From: Heptranchias perlo
Lineage: Eukaryota
Assembly: GCF_035084215.1 (NCBI RefSeq)
Contig: NC_090341.1
Location: 15,810,001-15,874,000, forward strand
Direction of reading: 5' to 3'
Length of the DNA stretch: 64,000 nt
Made by a program: the position numbers and the translations under genes. Each line of letters starts with the position of its first letter. The stretch's first letter is position 1. This document shows, one piece after another, positions 12,883 through 61,978 of this stretch. The notes under the pieces are model-generated. The model was not told where the DNA came from and ran no database searches. It saw only the letters and a program-made list of their open reading frames with translations.

Positions 12883-15814
12883 ATTGTAAACAATTTTACA
12901 ACACCAAGTTATAGTCCAGCAATTTTATTTTAAATTCACAAGCTTTCGGAGATTTCCTCCTTCCTCAGGCAAATGTTTCAAGAGCTCCTTGAAGCCTACG
13001 CATTTATACATATTGAACAATACATGGTGTTTACAGACTGCCCCTGCAACTGCCCGTTGCCAAGGCAATCACCGTGTTCAGACAGAGAGGTGTCACCTGC
13101 AGAACCCCCGAATACACATTCAACAAAAAAACAAACAGGGAAAAAAAACAGAGAAAAAAAAAACACAGAGAGAGGCAGAAACATCCGGAAGGCAGAGAGA
13201 GCCAGCAAATGACCCATTATATTAAAAACAGATAACATTTGTTCGCTGGTGGGGTAACGTGTAGCGTGACATGAACCCAAGATCCCGGTTGAGGCCGTCC
13301 TCATGGGTGCTGAACTTGGCTATCAATTTCTGCTCGACGATTTTGCGTTGTCGTGTGTCTCGAAGGCCGCCTTGGAGTACGCTTACCCGAAGGTCGGTGG
13401 ATGAATGTCCATGACTGCTGAAGTGTTCCCCGACTGGGAGGGAACCCTCCTGTTTGGCGATTGTTGCGCGGTGTCCGTTCATCCGTTGTCGCAGCGTCTG
13501 CATGGTCTCGCCAATGTACCATGCTCTGGGGCATCCTTTCCTGCAACGTATGAGGTAGACAACGTTGGCCGAGTCACAGGAGTATGAACCATGCACCTGG
13601 TGGGTGGTGTCATCTCGTGTGATGGTGGTATCTGTGTCGATGATCTGGCATGTCTTGCAGAGGTTACCGTGGCAGGGTTGTGTGGCGTCGTGGACGCTGT
13701 TCTCTTGAAAGCTAGGTAGTTTGCTGCGAACGATGGTCTGTTTGAGGTTGGGTGGCTGTTTAAAGGCGAGTAGTGGAGGTGTGGGGATGGCCATAGCGAG
13801 GTGTTTGTCCTCATTGATGACATGTTGAAGGCTGCGGAGAACATGGCGTAGTTTCTCCGCTCCGGGGAAGTACTGGACGACAAAGGGTACTCTGTTGGTT
13901 GCGTCCCGTGTTAGTCTCCTGAGGAGGTCTATGCGATTTTTTGCTGTGGCCCGTCGGAACTGTCGATCGATGAGTCGAGCGTCATATCCCGTTCTTACTA
14001 GGGCGTCTTTCAGCGTCTGTAGGTGTCCATCGCGTTCCTCCTCGTCTGAGCAGACCCTGTGTATTCGCAGGGCCTGTCCATAGGGGATGGCCTCTTTGAC
14101 GTGGTTAGGGTGGAAGCTGGAAAAGTGGAGCATCGTGAGGTTGTCCGTGGGCTTGCGGTAGAGTGAGGTGCTGAGGTGCCCGTCTTTGATGGAGATTCGT
14201 GTGTCCAAGAAAGAAACTGATTCTGAGGAGTAGTCCATGGTGAGCTTGATGGTGGGATGGAACTTGTTGATGTTATCGTGTAGTCTCTTTAGTGATTCCT
14301 TGCCGTGGGTCCATAGAAAGAAAATGTCGTCGATGTATCTGGTGTATAGTGTTGGTTGGAGGTCTTGTGCAGTGAAGAAGTCCTGCTCGAACTTGTGCAT
14401 GAAAATGTTGGCGTATTGGGGTGCGAATTTGGTCCCCATGGCTGTTCCGTGTGTTTGGGTAAAGAACTGGTTATCGAAGGTGAAGACATTGTGATCCAGG
14501 ATGAAGCAGATGAGTTGTAGGATGGCTTCCGGAGATTGGCTGTTGTTGGTGTTGAGTATTGATGCTGTCGCAGCGATGCCGTCATCGTGGGGGATACTGG
14601 TGTATAGTGCCGAGACGTCCATCGTGGTGAGAAGTGTTCCTGGTTCAACTGGTCCGTGGGTACTGAGTTTTTGTAGGAAGTCTGTAGTGTCACGACAGAA
14701 GCTGGGGGTTCCCTGTACGATGGGTTTCAGGATGCCCTCGATGTATCCAGAGAGGTTCTCACACAGGGTTCCGTTGCCTGATACGATGGGACGTCCGGGT
14801 GTGTTGGCTTTGTGTATCTTTGGGAGGCAGTAGAAGTCTCCCACGCGGGGATTACGTGGGATGAGAATGCGTAGGATGCTTTGAAGGTCTGGATCGAAGG
14901 TCTTGATCAGTTTGTTGAGCTGGTGGGTGTGTTCTTTGGTCGGATCTGCGGGTAACCGTCTGTAGTGTTCCTGGTTGTCCAGTTGTCGGTATGCTTCTTT
15001 GCAATAGTCTGTTCTGTTCTGTATGACTATGGCTCCTCCTTTGTCCGCTGGTTTGATGACGATGTTGCGGTTGGTCTTGAGAGCGTTGATGGCGTTGCGT
15101 TGTGCTCGGGTGACATTCTGGACTGTCTTCTGAGTGCGGCTGATGAATCTGGCATTGACGCATTTCCTGACAGCTTGAGCATACATGTCCAGCTGAGGGC
15201 AGCGACCCTCCGGAGGAGTCCAGTTTGACTCTTTCCTCTTCGGTTGCTGTACCGCGGATCCCTCTGTCTGCTGTTCCGGATCGTCGATTGTCTCATTGGG
15301 TTCGCTGCTGAAATCTTGGGGTTTGTGGTAGAATTCCCGGAGCCTCATTCTCCTGATGAATTCCTCTGTGTCCGCCGCGAGACTAGTGGGGTCCATTTTG
15401 GTAGTGGGGCAGAAATTGAGCCCTCGGCTGAGAACTTCGATTTCGTCTGGTTGAAGGGTGTGGTCGGATAAATTGACAATAGACTTCCCTGTGGTTGCAA
15501 CCGTGGTACCAGGGGAAGCTTGGTCGTTGCTGGTGGTGATGCCGAGTTTCTCAAGCTTCCTGCTCTTGGTTTTCATGTAGGCAGCGTAGTTCCATTGCCT
15601 CGTCTGTTTGGCGGTATAACGTAGCTGGTCTGCTGTGTCCTGAGTACAGGTTGAGAGTATGGACTCTATCTTGGTTTCGAGGTTGTGGCGTCTGCTGTAG
15701 AGTTGGTGTATGAGATGGTTGCGGAGTGTGCGAGAGGTACGGCGGCAGAGTCTCTCAGCGTAATCCGAGTTGTATGTGGACTTGAGTGGGTTCGTGATCT
15801 GGAGTCCTTTCGGG
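12883..15814 (-). mobile_element. Penelope-like element (Neptune-type), 5'-truncated, young
   Basis: Flanked by 11-bp duplication ATGTGTTTACA (12872, 15815); long open ORF plus 3'UTR containing a hammerhead. Confidence 0.95.
12935..12973 (-). ncRNA. Minimal type I hammerhead ribozyme (PLE 3'UTR)
   Basis: UUUGC CUGAGGA A GGAG-GAAAU-CUCC GAAA GCUU GUGAA. Confidence 0.85.
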
Positions 15815-15831: not shown

Positions 15832-15862
15832 CGAGGAAGGAAGCAGTGCTGTATCTAGTTAT

Positions 15863-16121
15863 TGTAAACAATTTTACAACACCAAGTTATAGTCCAGCAA
15901 TTTTATTTTAAATTCACAAGCTTTCGGAGGCTTCCTCCTTCGTCAGGTAAATGTTCAGGAGCTCCTTGAAGTCTACCTGAAGGAGCTCCTGAACATTTAC
16001 CTGACGAAGGAGGAAGCCTCCGAAAGCTTGTGAATTTAAAATAAAATTGCTGGACTATAACTTGGTGTTGTAAAATTGTTTACAATTGTCAACCCCAGTC
16101 CATCACCGGCATCTCCACATC
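15863..16121. mobile_element. PLE-derived hairpin element
   Basis: 105-bp inverted arms (15863-15967 / 15980-16084), 37-nt tail ending CTCCACATC, 12-bp TSD GTATCTAGTTAT. Confidence 0.95.
15996..16034 (+). ncRNA. Minimal type I hammerhead (mirror copy on - strand at 15913-15951)
   Basis: UUUAC CUGACGA A GGAGG-AAG-CCUCC GAAA GCUU GUGAA. Confidence 0.85.
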
Positions 16122-17701
16122 GTATCTAGTTATGGGGAATTAAGTGGAGCATATTTCAATGGGGGAGTATTTGGAGAATAGTGATCATAATATCATCAGG
16201 TTTAGAATAGTTATGGAAAAGGACAAGGAACAATCAAGCGTAAAAATAACTTCAGTGAGTTAAAAAGGGATCTTGCCCAGGTGGATTGGAATCAATAATT
16301 GGTAGGCAAAACAGTAATTGAACAATGGGAGGCCTTCAAACAGAAGATGGTTTGGGTACAGAGTAGACACAGTCCCACGAAGGGGAAAGGAAGGGCATCC
16401 AAAGCTAGAGCTCCCTGGATGACCAAAGATATAGAGATTAAAATTAAACAGAAAAAGGAGCTTATGACAGATATACGGTTCATAATACAGTAGAGAACCA
16501 AGCTAAATACAGAGCAGATCTAAAAAAGGAATAAGATTGGCAAAGACAGAGTATAAGAATAGTTTGTTGGCTAACATAAAAGGGAACCCAAAAGTCTTTT
16601 ATAAACATATATATAAATAGTAAAAGGGTAGTCAAAGGAAGGGTGGGGCTGATTAGGGACAAAAAAGATCTTCTTGTGGAGGCAGAGGGTATGGCTGAGG
16701 TACTAAATGAATACTTTGCATCGGTCTTCACTAGAGAAGAGGATGCTGCAAATGTAACAGTAAAGGAGGACGTAGTAGCGATATTGGATAGGATAAAAAT
16801 AGATAAAGAAGAGGTACTTAAAAGATTGACAGTACTCAAAGTGGAAAAGTCAACCTGTCCAGATGGGATGCACCTAGGTTACTGAGGGAAGTAAGGGCGG
16901 AAATTGCGGAGGCTCTGGCCACAGTCTTCCATTCCTCCTTCAGATATGGGGGCAGTGCCAGAGGACTGGAGGATTGGAAATGTTACACCTCGGTTCATAA
17001 AAGGAGAGCGGGATAAACCTGACAATTACAGGCTAGTCAGCCTAATGTAGGGAAACTTTTAGAGATAATAATCCAGGACAAAATTAATTGGCACTTGGAA
17101 AAATGTGGGCTGATAAATGAAAATCAGCATGGATTTGTTAAAGGAAAATCATATTAGACTGACTTGATTGAGTTCTTTGATGAAGTAACAGAGATGGTTG
17201 ATGAAGGTAATATGGTTGATATGTATATGGACTTTCAAAAGGCATTTGATAAAGTACCACATAATAGACTTGTTAGCAAAATTAAAGCCCATGGAATTAA
17301 AGGGTCAGTTGCAGCATGGATACAAATTTGGCTAAGGGCCAAAAAGCAGAGAGTAGTGGTGAACGGTTGTTTCTCAGACTTTTCAGTGGTGTTCCCTAGG
17401 GGTTGGTATAAGGACCACTGCTCTTTTTGACATATATTAATGACCTGGACTTTGGTATAGAGGGTATAATTTCAAAGCTTGCAGATGACACGAAACTCGG
17501 AAATGTCATAAACAGTGGGGAGGATGGTGACAGACATTAGGAGGATATAGACAGACTGGTGAAATGGCAGATGAAATTCAGAGAAGTCTGAAGTGATACA
17601 TTTTGGTAGGAAAAATTAGGAAATGCAATATAAACTAAATGGTACAATTTTAAAGGGAGTGCGGGAACTTTGAATACTTTGCGCCTGTCTTCACAAAAGA
17701 A

Positions 17702-18333
17702 TTGTAAACAATTTTACAACACCAAGTTATAGTCCAGCAATTTTATTTTAAATTCACAAGCTTTCGGAGGCTTCCTCCTTCGTCAGGTGAACGATGTGAA
17801 AATGAAAACCTCGAAATGAAATCGCATTTATAATTCACAGAACAATGCTTGGTGAGTACAGACAGTTTTTTCAACTGCCCGTTGCCAAAGCAATCAGTGT
17901 GCAGACAGACAGGTGTTACCTGCCAGGTCTCACAGAATATACAAATCACCAAAAAAAAAACAACAAACAAAAAAAAACAGAGATAGAGAGGTAGAAACAT
18001 ATGTTTCTACCTCTCTATCTCTTTTTTTTTGTTTGTTGTTTTTTTTTTGGTGATTTGTATATTCTGTGAGACCTGGCAGGTAACACCTGTCTGTCTGCAC
18101 ACTGATTGCCTTGGCAACGGGCAGTTGAAAAAACTGTCTGTACTCACCAAGCATTGTTCTGTGAATTATAAATGCGATTTCATTTCGAGGTTTTCATTTT
18201 CACATCGTTCACCTGACGAAGGAGGAAGCCTCCGAAAGCTTGTGAATTTAAAATAAAATTGCTGGACTATAACTTGGTGTTGTAAAATTGTTTACAATTG
18301 TCAACCCCAGTCCATCACCGGCATCTCCACATC
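17702..18333. mobile_element. Large PLE-derived palindrome
   Basis: ~300-bp arms with no spacer (centre GAAACAT|ATGTTTC, 18000/18001), 36-nt tail, TSD (TC)TTCACAAAAGAA. Confidence 0.95.
18208..18246 (+). ncRNA. Minimal type I hammerhead (mirror copy on - strand at 17753-17791)
   Basis: UUCAC CUGACGA A GGAGG-AAG-CCUCC GAAA GCUU GUGAA. Confidence 0.88.
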
Positions 18334-18502
18334 TTCACAAAAGAAGGGGACGATGCAGACATTGTAGTTAAGGAGGAGGAGTGTGAAATATTGGATGGGA
18401 TAAACATAGTAAGAGAGGAAGTAGTAAAGGGTTTAGCATTTTTGAAAGTAGATAAATCGTCAGGCCCGGATGAAATGTATCCCAAGCTGTTAAGAGAAGC
18501 AT

Positions 18503-18759
18503 GATGTGGAGATGCCGGTGATGGACTGGGGTTGACAATTGTAAACAATTTTACAACACCAAGTTATAGTCCAGCAATTTTATTTTAAATTTCTAATGAT
18601 TTAGACTTAAATGTAGGGGACATGATTAAGAAATTTGAAGATGATACTAAAATTGGCCGTGTGGTTGACAGTGAGGAGGAAAGCTGTAGACTGCAGGAAG
18701 AGATCAGTGGACTGGTCAGGTGGGCAGAAAAGTGGCAAATGGAATTCAGTCCTGAATTT
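18503..18759. mobile_element. Chimeric insertion: PLE 3' end (~89 bp, - strand) + 162-bp copy of 19328-19489
   Basis: Direct sequence comparison; AAGCA at both flanks (18497, 18760). Confidence 0.9.
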
Positions 18760-20867
18760 AAGCAAGGGAGGAAATGGCAGAGGTTCTGACCATCATTTTC
18801 CAATCCTCCCTGGCTACAGGCATGGTGCTGGATGATTGGAGGACTGCTAACATTGTACTGTTGTTTAAAAAGGGAGAAAGGGATAGACCGAGTAATTACA
18901 GGCCAGTCAGCCTAACCTCGGTGGTGGACAAATTATTGGAAAAAATTCTGAGGGACAGTATTAATCGTCATTTAGAAAGACACGGATTAATCAAAGACAG
19001 TCAGCATGGGTTTGTTAAGGGAAGGTTGTGTCTGACTAATTTGATTTAATTTTTTGAGGAGGTAACAAGGAGCGTCAATGAGGGTAGCGCGTTTGATGTC
19101 GTCTACATGGATTTTAGCAAGGCTTTTGACAAGGTCCCACATGGCAGACTGGTTGAAAAGGTGAAAGCCCATGGGATCAAAGGGAAAGTGGCAAGTTGGA
19201 TCCAAAATTGGCTCATTGGCAGGAAGCAAAGGTTAATGGTCGACGGGTGTTTTTGTGACTGGAAGGCTGTTTCCATTGGGGTTCCGCAGGGTTCAGTATT
19301 AGGTCCCTTGCTTTTTGTGGTATATATTAATGATTTAGACTTAAATGTAGGGGACATGATTAAGAAATTTGAAGATGATACAAAAATTGGCCGTGTGGTT
19401 GACAGTGAGGAGGAAAGCTGTAGACTGCAGGAAGAGATCAGTGGACTGGTCAGGTGGGCAGAAAAGTGGCAAATGGAATTCAGTCCTGAGAAGTGTACGG
19501 TAATATATTTGGGGAGGGCAACCAAGGCAAGGAGCCACACAATAAATGAGAGGATACTGAGAGATGTAGAGGAACAGAGGGACCTTGGAGTGCATGTCCA
19601 CAGATCCCTGAAGGTAGCAGGACAGATAGATAAGGTGGTTAAGAAGGCATTCTAGCCGAGGCATAGAATATAAAAGCAGGGAGGTTATGCTAGAACTGTA
19701 TAAAATACTAGATAGGCCACAGCTTGAGTACTGTGTATAGTTCTGGCCACCACATTACAGGAAGGGTGTGATTGCACTAGAGAGGGTGCAGTGGAGATTT
19801 ACGAGGATGTTGCCAGGATTGAAGAATTTTAACTATGAGGAAAGATTGGATAGGCTGGGAATGTTTTCTTTGGAACAAAGGAGGCTGAGGGGAGATTTAA
19901 TTGAGGTGTATAAAATTATGAGAGGCCAAGATAGAGTGGATAGGAAGGACCTATTTCTCTTAGCAGAAAGGTCAATAACCAGGGGGCCTAGATTTAAAGT
20001 AATTGGTAGAAGGATTAGAGGGGAGCCGAAGAGAACCTTTTTTATCCAGAGGGTGGTAGAGGTGTGGAACTCACTGCTTGAATGGGTGATAAAGGCAGAA
20101 ACCCTCATCACATTTAGAAAGTACTTGGATATGCACTTGAAGTGCCACAACCTACAAGACTACAGACCAAGTGCTGGAAAGTTGGATTAGGCATGATAGC
20201 TCTTTTATGGGCCAAATGGTCTCCTTCTGTGCTGTAAATTTTCATGGTTCTATGATTCTATGAGGAACAGAGAGACCTGGGAGTGTACATACACAAATCT
20301 TTGAAGGTGGCAGGACAAGTTGAGAAAGGTGTTAAAAAAGCAAATGGGATCCTTGGCTTTATTAACAGAGGCATAGAGTACAAAAGCAAGGAAGTTTTAC
20401 TAAACCTTTAATAAAACACTGGTTAGGCCTCAGCTAGAGCATTGTGTTCAATTCTGGGCACCACACTTTAGGAAGGATGTCAAGGCCTTAGAGAGGATGC
20501 AGAAGAGATTTACTGGAATGGCACCAGGGATGAGGGACTTCAGTTATGTGGAAAGACTGGAGAAGCTGGGGTTGTTCTCCTTAGAGCAGAGAAGGTTAAG
20601 AGGAGATTTGATAGAGGTGTTCAAAATCATGAATGGTTCTAATAAAGTAAATAAGGAGAAACTGTTTCCAGTAGCAGAAGGGTCGGTAACCAGAGGACAC
20701 AGATTTAAGGTGATTGGCAACTGAGGCGACATGAGAAAACTTTTTTTTTAAGCAGCGCGTTATTATGATCTGGAATGCACTGCCTTAAAGGGTGGTGGAA
20801 GCAGATTCAGTAGTAAGTTCAAAAGGAATTGGATAAATATTTGAAGGGAAAAAAATTAAAGGGCGTT

Positions 20868-23911: not shown

Positions 23912-24389
23912 ATCCTGCAAATATCTATGCAAATAATGAGGTTAAGTTGGGGAACATTGAAATTTACGGATTTGATTATGATTATACTCTTGCACAATAT
24001 TCCAATTCAGTGCACACAATGATCTTTGACACTGCACGAGAAATCCTGATTGATCAATACAAGGTAAGTTATTTTTGATTCTTTTTAAAATGATTACACT
24101 GATTTCTTCAAGCCTATTGACAGTGCTGCTAAATATTACAGTAGAACCAACATTATCCACCACAATGGAATGGATCCTGTTGGTAGATAATGGAAATTGG
24201 AGGATAATTGAGAATCTCTACATTTTAGTCTTGCACGTATGGTACTCAGGTACCCTAGCCATGGGAATAAAGGTAAGTTTAATACAAATAAGATAAATTG
24301 AATTCAATCTTTCTTTGGCTGTGAGGTTAATTTATTTTAGAAAAATTGATGTTAATGGGCTATGAAATGAGGCCACGTTTTATACAAGT
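23912..24389 (+). pseudogene. Partial duplicate of NT5DC2 exon 2 plus start of intron 2
   Basis: Identical by eye to 25411-25888 (478 bp); lacks the acceptor and first 33 nt of the exon. Confidence 0.95.
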
Positions 24390-24480
24390 ATTTTTCATCA
24401 CAATAAACAAAACTTAACTATGTGTTTCCAGTCATGTATTTTTCATCACAATAAACAAAACTTAACTATGTGTTTCCAGT
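24388..24480 (+). repeat. 45-bp tandem duplication at the duplication breakpoint
   Basis: gtatttttcatcacaataaacaaaacttaactatgtgtttccagt twice, separated by CAT. Confidence 0.95.
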
Positions 24481-25377: not shown

Positions 25378-25562
25378 AACTTATTCCCCCAGGAGTCTGC
25401 AACCTCCTCAATCCTGCAAATATCTATGCAAATAATGAGGTTAAGTTGGGGAACATTGAAATTTACGGATTTGATTATGATTATACTCTTGCACAATATT
25501 CCAATTCAGTGCACACAATGATCTTTGACACTGCACGAGAAATCCTGATTGATCAATACAAG
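25378..25562 (+). CDS. NT5DC2: NT5DC2 exon 2 (HAD motif I DxDxT)
   Basis: ttcccag acceptor; (E)[40 protein letters not shown]...IDQYK; donor AAG|GTAAGT. Confidence 0.95.
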
Positions 25563-26229
25563 GTAAGTTATTTTTGATTCTTTTTAAAATGATTACACTG
25601 ATTTCTTCAAGCCTATTGACAGTGCTGCTAAATATTACAGTAGAACCAACATTATCCACCACAATGGAATGGATCCTGTTGGTAGATAATGGAAATTGGA
25701 GGATAATTGAGAATCTCTACATTTTAGTCTTGCACGTATGGTACTCAGGTACCCTAGCCATGGGAATAAAGGTAAGTTTAATACAAATAAGATAAATTGA
25801 ATTCAATCTTTCTTTGGCTGTGAGGTTAATTTATTTTAGAAAAATTGATGTTAATGGGCTATGAAATGAGGCCACGTTTTATACAAGTCTTTGTTCCATG
25901 AAAAATGTCAGATAATTGGGAAGACAGATAATTGGAGTGTGGATTATTTCTTTGGAATTTAATAAACACCATCAAAAATACAAAGAGCGATAATAAATAT
26001 TGCCATTGATTTTGCTACACTTTTCATATGATTTGCATAAGTAGCACTTTTTGTGCCAGGTTTTATGACAACAGAATAATTTGCATTTATTTAGTGCCTT
26101 AAAATAGAAAAGTTCTCAAGGTGCTTCAATGAAACATAAGGAAAATGGACAATGAACCAAAGAAGGAAAGATTAGGACGGGTGGCCAAAAGTTTGGTTAG
26201 AGAGGTGATTTTAGGAGGGAAGGCAAGGG

Positions 26230-59500: not shown

Positions 59501-61772
59501 ACATGTGAATAACTTTCTACTCAGTAATTGTTTCATATAATTTCTTTACAAACAGAAACTAAATCCATCAAAATTGGCTTTTTAGGAATAAACCATGGGA
59601 GTTCCTACACAAAAGGGAGACCGTTGGCTCATTGAGCCTGTGCAGCTTGCTCCTTTATGTAAGCACTGCTCACAATTAGCATGTAAATCACTTCAGTGCA
59701 ACGGTGAATTCCTTTTATGCAGAATGGGCAGCGCTTGGAAAATAGAGAGGTACAAAATATTTCTAAACAGTCAAACGCTGGTTTCTGGCTGTAAATTCTC
59801 ATCATTATGCATCAACCTTTGAACATAGAAGATGGAAACGTGACAAACGGAGAAGGGAGAAATTTGAAATACAACAGCGGACTGTATGAGATTCTAACTT
59901 TTAAACTTCAGTCTGCATGTTGCCATGTGGAAAAATGCATATGTGGAGGTAACTAGAAGGTTGTTATTCAGATGAAGGACTCTAATGGTGCCACAGAGTG
60001 TGAGAATGCAACAAAAGAAGGTTCTTAGTTACAGCAAGCTGTAGGATTGAATTACAGCCTTTAAGTCCTTTAAAAACATGTAGTATTTCTTGTCATATGC
60101 GCCAACTGACTTTGCAATGAAGCAAGGTATTAGGAACTGTGCCAACACAAGGGCGCTACTGCAGAAACTGGGTGCTTGGAGGGGAATGCTAATGACTGTT
60201 AGAGGCAGTGCCCTGATAGTGAGAACAAACCTCATCTTTGATTCACAGGACAGTATAATAATTAGTCTGGAGAATAATTGTGGACGTATTTCAAAATTTT
60301 ATCTGGTATAGTAGTCACTCATTGATTAGCTGCATCATCTTTTCAGTGTGTAAACTAGAACAAACATATCAGTTTTTAATCTCAGCTTCTATAACTTTTA
60401 TTGCTGGACCATGCTTTGTGAGGATTGGAACAGAACTTGTAGTCAGATGTATTTCTGGATACGTATACATAGTTTGACAATGTCATGACTCAGTCAGTTG
60501 GGGAGCGGCAATCTGGCTCTGTCAATAACCCTGTCATATTTTAAACATGACTCTCAGTGAAATGCAGATCTGCTTTCCACCAGTTGCCTCTCACTTGCAG
60601 TTTGCACTGCATTTGAAATTTAATGCAGCAACAATGACAACTGGATGTGTGCTTTACAACGTAAAGGATGTCTGTGCTTGGGAAGAGAATATCTTCCTCA
60701 TTTTTGCCATCCATTGTCAGATATAGCATGGGCTTAAGTGTATCAGTGTGAAATACCATTCCCTTGCTGTCAATTTCACACATGCCAACCGTCTGCATTT
60801 CACGTGAACAGTCAGCATTTTGGAGTTAGTATCTGCTTCTGTGTGTTTGCAGATGAAAATCGGCACTGCTTCCAGCTCCTACCTGATGCTGCTGTTCCAG
60901 GGGATGGAACTCTGCTGCACGTTGTGGATGGGATTTTTCACAGGAGTTTTGTGAGATCAGGAATTCCTGCCCATACCGTGCCACAATAGCAGCAGCATAA
61001 GGTAGGAACCAGGAGGGTAGAAAGGTGCCATCAACTCTGATAATTGTATGCATCCGATGAATGAAAACAGCTGGAATCTCTACTGACTGACAATAGACAG
61101 TGAACATATTCAATCTTACCACAATCTTCACCATTTGTCTGTTCAAATGACAAAACAGTTCTATAAGTAGCCTGAATGCGCTCACTGGGTGAGTGGTGCA
61201 ATGACAGGCTGCACTGATGGGCAATAAGATGTGAGAGTCTCCCCAGCTCAAGTTCCCAAAGTCAAGCAAAAGTCCTCTGCATAAGGCAATCCCATAAGAG
61301 TGACAAAGAAAAACCGAAAGAAGAGCAAACTCGCATTACTAATGCACACCCAGCTCCTGACCATTTACAGGGAGCGGCATTGGTGGGAATTAGGTGCATA
61401 AGACTGTAAGTAAATAACTTTAGGAACAGGACACAAAATAAGGTCAACACAAAAAACCATGGCATGTTAAAGAAAGGCACAACTTTTTCATATCACTAAG
61501 TCTGTTCAATTTCTGCAATGTAATTGACAGCTTCTTCGTTCTTTATAAGTATAATAACCTGTTAAAGTTGGCAGATTTTATTCCGTGCCTGTCGGACAAG
61601 GCCTGTGTTACCAGTAAGATTCTAAACTATGAGAAGAAAGATACTTGTAACACAAATTACTATGTAATTAAGTCTGTTTGACAAACCTTTAGCCCAGTTT
61701 ATGTTGCAGGTGTATATCTCTTTTGGCTTTGGAGCCTGAAGTGTTATATAAATTAATGCCAATGCAGGAAAG

Positions 61773-61978
61773 TGTAAGGAATCTTACAACACCAGGTTAT
61801 AGTCCAACAGTTTTATTTGAAAATCACAAGCTTTCGGAGCTTACCTCCTTCGTCAGGTGAGCGAAGGAGGTAAGCTCCGAAAGCTTGTGATTTTCAAATA
61901 AAACTGTTGGACTATAACCTGGTGTTGTAAGATTCCTTACATTTGTCCACCCCAGTCCATCACCGGCATCTCCACATC
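61773..61978. mobile_element. Hairpin element of a diverged PLE subfamily; intact hammerhead on - strand 61824-61860
   Basis: 80-bp arms (61773-61852 / 61862-61941), 37-nt tail ending CTCCACATC, TSD AATGCAGGAAAG; UCAC CUGACGA A GGAG-GUAAG-CUCC GAAA GCUU GUGA. Confidence 0.92.

Follow-up and report, generated by a model that had tools for sequence, protein, structure and literature searches.

Within a LINE of the host, a very short copy of a PLE is followed by 162 bp duplicated from nearby DNA, and the copy ends just ahead of the predicted cut of the hammerhead ribozyme of the element. The question raised by this locus (18497-18764 of the window, i.e. of the whole 64,000-nucleotide stretch of Heptranchias perlo DNA analysed here) is whether reverse transcription ran off the end of a ribozyme-cleaved RNA before turning to local host sequence, as proposed in the preliminary description, or whether it halted early on an uncut template.

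Structure and source of the insert

In the assembly, the insert comprises 258 bp: a very short PLE copy, a copy of 162 bp of host DNA and fillers, framed by a target duplication (all coordinates of the insert refer to the + strand). The left duplication AAGCA occupies 18497..18501 and is maybe the end of a 12-bp duplication from 18490. The trinucleotide CAT at 18500..18502 is the complement of the start codon and likely represents priming microhomology plus one templated base: the element ORF begins right after cDNA position 1 (position 1 being the tail end of the element), and the T at 18502 and the preceding CA agree with the element start codon. CAT is found directly ahead of 81 of the 218 tailed arms of the family, and judging from the sequence the insert was likely primed via this start-codon microhomology. 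PLE cDNA positions 1-89 (the 34-nt tail and a further 55 nt) follow at 18503..18591; all 89 bp agree (100% identity) with the same cDNA positions in two other PLE copies of the window, 18245-18333 and 16033-16121. The insertion thus begins with the complete tail at 18503, as previously described, and its end at 89, 3 nt short of the predicted cut after position 92, falls within the 2-3 nt given before.

The junction holds a 2-nt filler, TC (18592..18593), and the trinucleotide ATT is common to the cDNA end and the donor. The locally templated host segment of 162 bp (18594..18755) is identical to 19328..19489 (+) at 161 of 162 positions, FEDD codons included, the single mismatch being T at 18648 vs A at 19382; it is followed by the filler ATTT (18756..18759) and the right target duplication AAGCA (18760..18764), exactly as had been read from the letters. 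The donor lies within the RT region of a host CR1-type LINE, 570-830 bp downstream of the break. Its local origin, a point that the preliminary description had left for checking, holds in the 3.25-Gb genome: among the 40 candidates scored out of 3033, no non-self sequence matches the 162 bp better than the local donor (99%), with the runner-up at 95%. When the 258 bp are excised in silico, the ORF of the host LINE, which matches RVT_1, becomes continuous across the site.

Together with its flanks (18753-18761), the filler ATTT corresponds to 9 nt of sense PLE sequence (positions 83-91), located just after the cut; 2 of the 256 possible fillers match equally well. The target duplication of the family has a mode of 12 bp (74/196), compared to which 5 bp is short, and AAGCA may be a 12-bp duplication minus five bases. 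Since the family duplication is usually 12 bp and its slippage would cover two of the four filler bases, ATTT provides a weak hint of a second priming on RNA. As seen in the assembly, this single insertion is real and itself ordinary, the PLE counterpart of L1 templated insertions.

The element and its hammerhead

A tandem array elsewhere in the genome provided a 3081-bp unit with a 902-aa ORF, which matches RVT_1 (E 3e-10) and, at its C-terminus, GIY-YIG (E 4e-4, a weak match just under the curated cut-off). This architecture is that of a canonical EN+ PLE, in which one ORF combines RT with a GIY-YIG nuclease at the C-terminus; the tandem/inverted pseudo-LTRs, with tandem units present, and the tail, which in such elements is optional and 30-40 bp long, also agree, as does the presence of a hammerhead motif in the pseudo-LTR. 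Position 1 adjoins the start codon, arm starts cluster near 1 or near 35, and an inverted partner adjoins 65 of 130 sampled arms; the pairs of one tailed and one tail-less arm are what priming of both strands from two start sites would produce. The 32-mer at cDNA 39-70 has 62,115 exact genomic matches.

As position reference we used the neighbouring inverted insertion at 17700..18333 (+), composed of a tail-less arm (17700-18000) and a tailed arm (18001-18333) with a 12-bp duplication. It carries a minimal type I hammerhead at 18207..18247 (+), with the predicted cut between 18241 and 18242, i.e. after cDNA position 92. The core of the motif is found in 280 of 305 arms, and stems I and II are maintained despite variation; the Rfam scan of the window returned no hammerhead at gathering score, and the monomer fold is no better than those of shuffled sequences (z -0.5).

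Several arrangements of the element were recorded on the side. Three inverted PLE insertions in the window (15860-16121, 17700-18333 and 61770-61979) each consist of one tailed and one tail-less arm, and a long tail-less arm starts at 12876 (+) inside an older repeat; 12011-12883 is inverted to 6149-6995. Arrays of at least three near-identical 3.08-kb units are present at L220 (G000:C1:188733825-188740024) and L156, and the arms that run on past 570 nt of the next unit (29 of 79 rows for arms extending into the ORF side) are compatible with long tandem or circular templates. At L228 (G000:C2:21273029-21276294) nine element start motifs recur with a 404-bp period; this tandem derivative is short, lacks the ORF, contains the hammerhead region and resembles a non-LTR retrozyme. 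One short PLE insertion has identical host flanks at three genomic places (L343, L346, L367), and was therefore carried along inside another repeat.

Ends of copies at the predicted ribozyme cut

If insertion templates were commonly cut, copies should terminate at cDNA position 92. Nested exact counts give 45,717 copies reaching position 84, 44,604 reaching 88, 43,359 reaching 93, 42,637 reaching 98 and 40,975 reaching 103, which corresponds to losses of 1113/45,717 (85-88), 1245/44,604 (89-93) and 722/43,359 (94-98). The per-base loss is 0.61% at 85-88, 0.56% at 89-93, 0.34% at 94-98 and 0.79% at 99-103 (a bin that contains a CpG and a palindrome), vs 18% at 137-140. Only 2.8% of the 44,604 copies leave the consensus at 89-93, and 97.2% pass. 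The genome-wide peak of truncations at the ribozyme site, by which the earlier proposal could have been recognized, is absent, and a genomic footprint of in vivo ribozyme cleavage is unsupported as a feature of the family, as ends do not pile up at the cut. The DNA-mode genome search, in which 40 candidates were scored and long copies were favoured, was left out of the end mapping.

At single-base resolution, the numbers of copies whose last match is at 89, 90, 91, 92, 93, 94, 95, 96 and 102 are 498, 215, 220, 165, 131, 235, 129, 122 and 72, respectively, and the corresponding estimates of true junctions are 382, 104, 121, 143, 70, 157, 48, 84 and 22, based on classification of the first 27-30 arms listed per position, with one duplicate removed at each of 90 and 91. 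Position 92 does not form a spike, its value being no higher than that at 94; the many junctions at 89 are mostly due to fold-back at an AATT palindrome (20/30 loci). Position 65 has approximately 64 estimated true junctions (4/30 loci, judged by eye). For ends joined directly to host DNA the estimates are 50, 52, 23 and 50 at positions 89-92, 17, 26, 5 and 13 at 93-96, and about 2 at 102. Such ends are thus about three times commoner at 89-92 than at 93-96, which speaks against uncut templates, with 1-9 loci per position and wide intervals; at position 90, two of the seven loci represent one propagated insertion. This excess leaves room for either a cleaved class amounting to well under 1% of arms or microhomology in AT-rich sequence. 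Among arms extending into the ORF side (79 rows, some of them duplicate), one ends at 92, 12 end at 115-148 and 29 run beyond 570.

A TATA-linked end of most copies

The position at which copies most often stop lies about 40-45 bases beyond the predicted ribozyme cut. Among 130 first-pass arms, 57 end at 122-141, four at 89-93 and one at 101-111. These arms come from the start of contig C1 and from the window with its flanks (135 after de-duplication, minus five second-pass arms); 20 loci were taken from lists requiring a match to 84-98, which introduces a slight bias against early ends, and without them 100 arms remain, still with four ends at 89-93. Genome-wide, in one subfamily, 14,231 copies reach position 131, 10,361 reach 136, 4,596 reach 140 and 3,434 reach 146 (counts that include point variants). 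Hence, 5765/10,361 (55.6%) stop at 137-140, where the loss per base exceeds that at the cut about 30-fold.

This end is linked to a TATAAAT motif (18167..18173, +), a predicted TATA box that is conserved across subfamilies and present in 178 of 189 long arms. Its sense positions are 161-167 or 154/155-160/161, depending on the subfamily. Fifty-six of 156 ends lie 29-31 nt downstream from the first T of the motif, with a mode of 30, and the favoured spacing from TATA to transcription start is 30 or 31, according to the accessible part of the published analysis (PMC1779604). In the subfamily of the window copies the main stop coincides with a predicted transcription start, the A in TCATTTT (18196..18197, +; cDNA 138/137). 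Copy ends move with the motif between subfamilies (medians 136 and 131; ends at or before 132 in 30/103 vs 27/43, p = 2e-4 by Fisher test, an optimistic value as paired arms are non-independent). As the end keeps a fixed spacing to TATA and shifts with it, most copies are likely run-off cDNAs that extend to the predicted transcription start of uncut RNA. Among solo arms, those that begin at 1 and those that begin at 35 share their end (medians 135.5 and 135), which points to a fixed template end.

Two observations speak against this start-site reading: the loss at 141-146 (1162/4596, 25%) is above the expectation for a single sharp start, and after read-through of a whole unit the next unit shows only a weak excess of ends at 115-148 (12 of the 79 rows mentioned above). 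Other causes of the 122-141 end were considered and rejected: processivity, as solo arms from 1 and 35 end alike, and skipping of an intron, as the 14 apparent skips mostly reflect missing subfamily references and have no recurrent junction. The TATA-linked stop agrees with the in vitro work on a lizard PLE, as far as presented in the accessible part of that report (PMC11167929). In the openly accessible literature searched, we found no report linking PLE copy ends to the start site or describing local capture by PLEs. The TATA-linked stop, with the uncut templates it implies, is a by-product worth following.

Capture of local host DNA across the family

Host DNA from the same locus has been found at seven sites among the 463 arms with enough flank, with PLE ends ranging from 86 to 519. 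Of the 29 rows flagged, visual inspection removed 21 that were palindromic, derived from the element or part of tandem or segmental repeats, which left eight rows (seven sites); with most loci represented by only 1.5 kb of flank, the capture rate is a lower bound. These are templated insertions in the sense that the junction segment is best matched by nearby DNA and lies inside the target duplication. At the six sites other than that in the window, segments span 29-379 bp and a target duplication of 11-12 bp was recovered at four. The PLE copy ends exactly at 92 and is joined to 178 bp from 1.0-1.2 kb upstream at L099; it ends at 139 with 130 bp at L272, at 519 with 35 + 237 bp at L003, at about 135 with 29 + 73 bp at L114, at 129 with 30 bp at L320, and at 86 with 379 bp in inverted orientation at L201.

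The end of L099 at the very cut position speaks against uncut templates; enrichment of captures near the cut is not significant (3/106 arms ending at 85-96 vs 4/357 others, p = 0.20). The route for PLE-driven local duplications suggested earlier stands, as capture recurs, and its tie to the cut site does not. Besides the capture in the window, two were found among 113 unselected arms. Local capture by PLEs is an added route to small duplications of host DNA, of which there are possibly hundreds in the genome, if the sampled rate holds.

Several of the captured segments and targets at L099, L114, L272, L201 and in the window resemble LINEs or SINEs. Short copies at L104, L108, L145, L158 and L162 are joined to sequence without a convincing target duplication nearby, and these joins represent either deletions or capture of distant DNA. 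The window also contains a 482-bp direct repeat (23912-24393 / 25411-25892; 99.8% identity, 1499 bp apart), to which no PLE end was linked in self-comparison, and one of 159 bp (3205-3363 / 3714-3872; 99.4% identity, 509 bp apart).

Origin of the insert

We regard it as probable, with good confidence, that the very short PLE copy and the 162-bp duplicate of nearby host DNA arose by target-primed reverse transcription that halted early on uncut RNA and was followed by local copying of the repair type. The copy begins at the usual start of the family beside the start codon, with a target duplication around it; at this step the nuclease of the element would cut both target strands and cDNA synthesis would start inside the RNA, for which there is in vitro precedent in the lizard PLE (accessible part of PMC11167929). 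Genome-wide, copies traverse the hammerhead and mostly end 29-31 nt downstream of the conserved TATA motif, which would be the 5' end of RNA that is mostly uncut. The window copy would belong to the early-ending minority, halted in the AT-rich palindromic tract at 84-94. One free 3' end, either of the cDNA or of the far side of the target, would then pair by 3-nt microhomology with DNA 570-830 bp off the break, copy 162 nt, be released and get joined. In the first case the template may have been the bottom strand, in the second the top strand or a sense RNA, and the geometry permits either strand. Of the switch postulated in the preliminary description, the local host source has been retained, and run-off from a cleaved RNA has found no support.

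It is conceivable, if unlikely, that the window copy stems from hammerhead-cut RNA as a minor class of template, by run-off at 92, loss of 3 nt and continued synthesis onto local DNA. The copy end is only 3 nt from the cut and host-joined ends drop approximately threefold past 92, yet AT-rich palindromes at 84-98 supply microhomology and account for the extra joins. Position 92, with about 143 true junctions, surpasses both 102 (about 22) and 65 (about 64; 4/30 loci, judged by eye), but it forms no spike and does not exceed 94, 97.2% of copies go past 89-93, and just one of the 79 second-pass rows ends at 92. The second filler ATTT matches sense positions 83-91, but a 12-bp duplication would leave only two of its bases in need of a template. 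Finally, the stems of the motif are maintained across variants, but in the lizard PLE, according to the part of the report available (PMC11167929), insertion proceeds normally with ribozyme mutants, and the cut coincided with neither the beginning nor the end of any RNA read.

Two further explanations dispense with the element's own reverse transcription or with the insert altogether. Repair of a break could have copied two nearby DNAs, namely the PLE at 18245-18333 (inverted) and the LINE at 19328-19489, identical or near-identical templates for both pieces being available within 1 kb. We find this quite improbable: the PLE piece starts exactly at the start site of the family with start-codon microhomology, a target duplication exists, there is no microhomology with the flank of the neighbouring copy, and the same 89 bp are common to tens of thousands of copies, so local identity is uninformative. 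That the structure is an artefact of assembly, to which two near-identical 162-bp stretches 734 bp apart could have given rise, has hardly any likelihood in view of the mismatch between them, the fillers at both joins and the target duplication, and of six more sites built in the same way, at four of which an 11-12 bp duplication was recovered.

Beyond early halting on uncut RNA at this locus, we consider it rather likely that the genome logs a short cycle of the PLE, in which cDNA synthesis is initiated internally on the RNA, next to the start codon, passes the uncut hammerhead and runs off at the start set by TATA. This cycle would leave tens of thousands of 95-140 bp copies without a TATA box of their own, and in 1-2% of joins it would duplicate host DNA lying as far as about 1 kb away. 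As at most about 1% of templates would be ribozyme-cut, the conserved hammerhead would work elsewhere than in making the insertion template. With its end matched exactly at approximately 62,000 places, the element provides a large natural test of the role of the PLE hammerhead, in which insertion templates appear overwhelmingly not cut-ended; the data also give a precise predicted transcription start and explain the shortness of most PLE copies.

Comparison with known systems

The closest counterpart is Poseidon PAc of Anolis carolinensis (Frangieh et al. 2024, PMC11167929), described here from the accessible part of the paper. There, as is likely here, uncut RNA is the main template. Both elements have RT with a C-terminal GIY-YIG, tandem units, extension of both strands, a hammerhead upstream of the start sites, and two internal start sites about 34 nt apart, which is the length of the tail. 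The start sites of PAc are located inside the ORF, whereas here position 1 adjoins the start codon. That part of the paper includes neither mapping of genomic 5' ends of insertions nor a description of host-DNA capture.

The hammerhead resembles the minimal ones of PLE pseudo-LTRs (Cervera and De la Pena 2014, PMC4209133) in its type I core and short palindromic helix III; for such motifs, the available part of that paper gives predicted dimeric activity and low activity in vitro. Its authors propose cleavage and circular templates, whereas the genomic ends analysed here bear no run-off mark at the cut; a circular template may apply to long tandem copies. In the accounts of Pen2a_Av from Adineta vaga and Penelope from D. 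virilis (accessible parts of PMC3846280 and PMC2377424), the promoter and start site are found in the pseudo-LTR, as predicted for our element. A putative TATA plus Inr has been noted in Pen2a_Av, whereas D. virilis Penelope, unlike the present element, is TATA-less with an internal promoter. Within those parts insertion ends are not linked to the start site, and unrelated sequence captured between pseudo-LTRs has been reported in the rotifer.

Templated insertions at L1 junctions have been described in 22 cases, usually <250 bp (Zumalave et al., bioRxiv 10.1101/2024.08.27.596794), and in three cases (Mendez-Dorantes et al., PMC11702581). In the accessible portions of both reports it was proposed that the growing cDNA anneals to nearby DNA. 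As in the captures described above, the junction receives a copy of non-element DNA from the vicinity of the insertion; donors of human L1, according to those portions, are typically within 15 bp of the site, whereas the PLE donors found here lie up to about 1.2 kb away.
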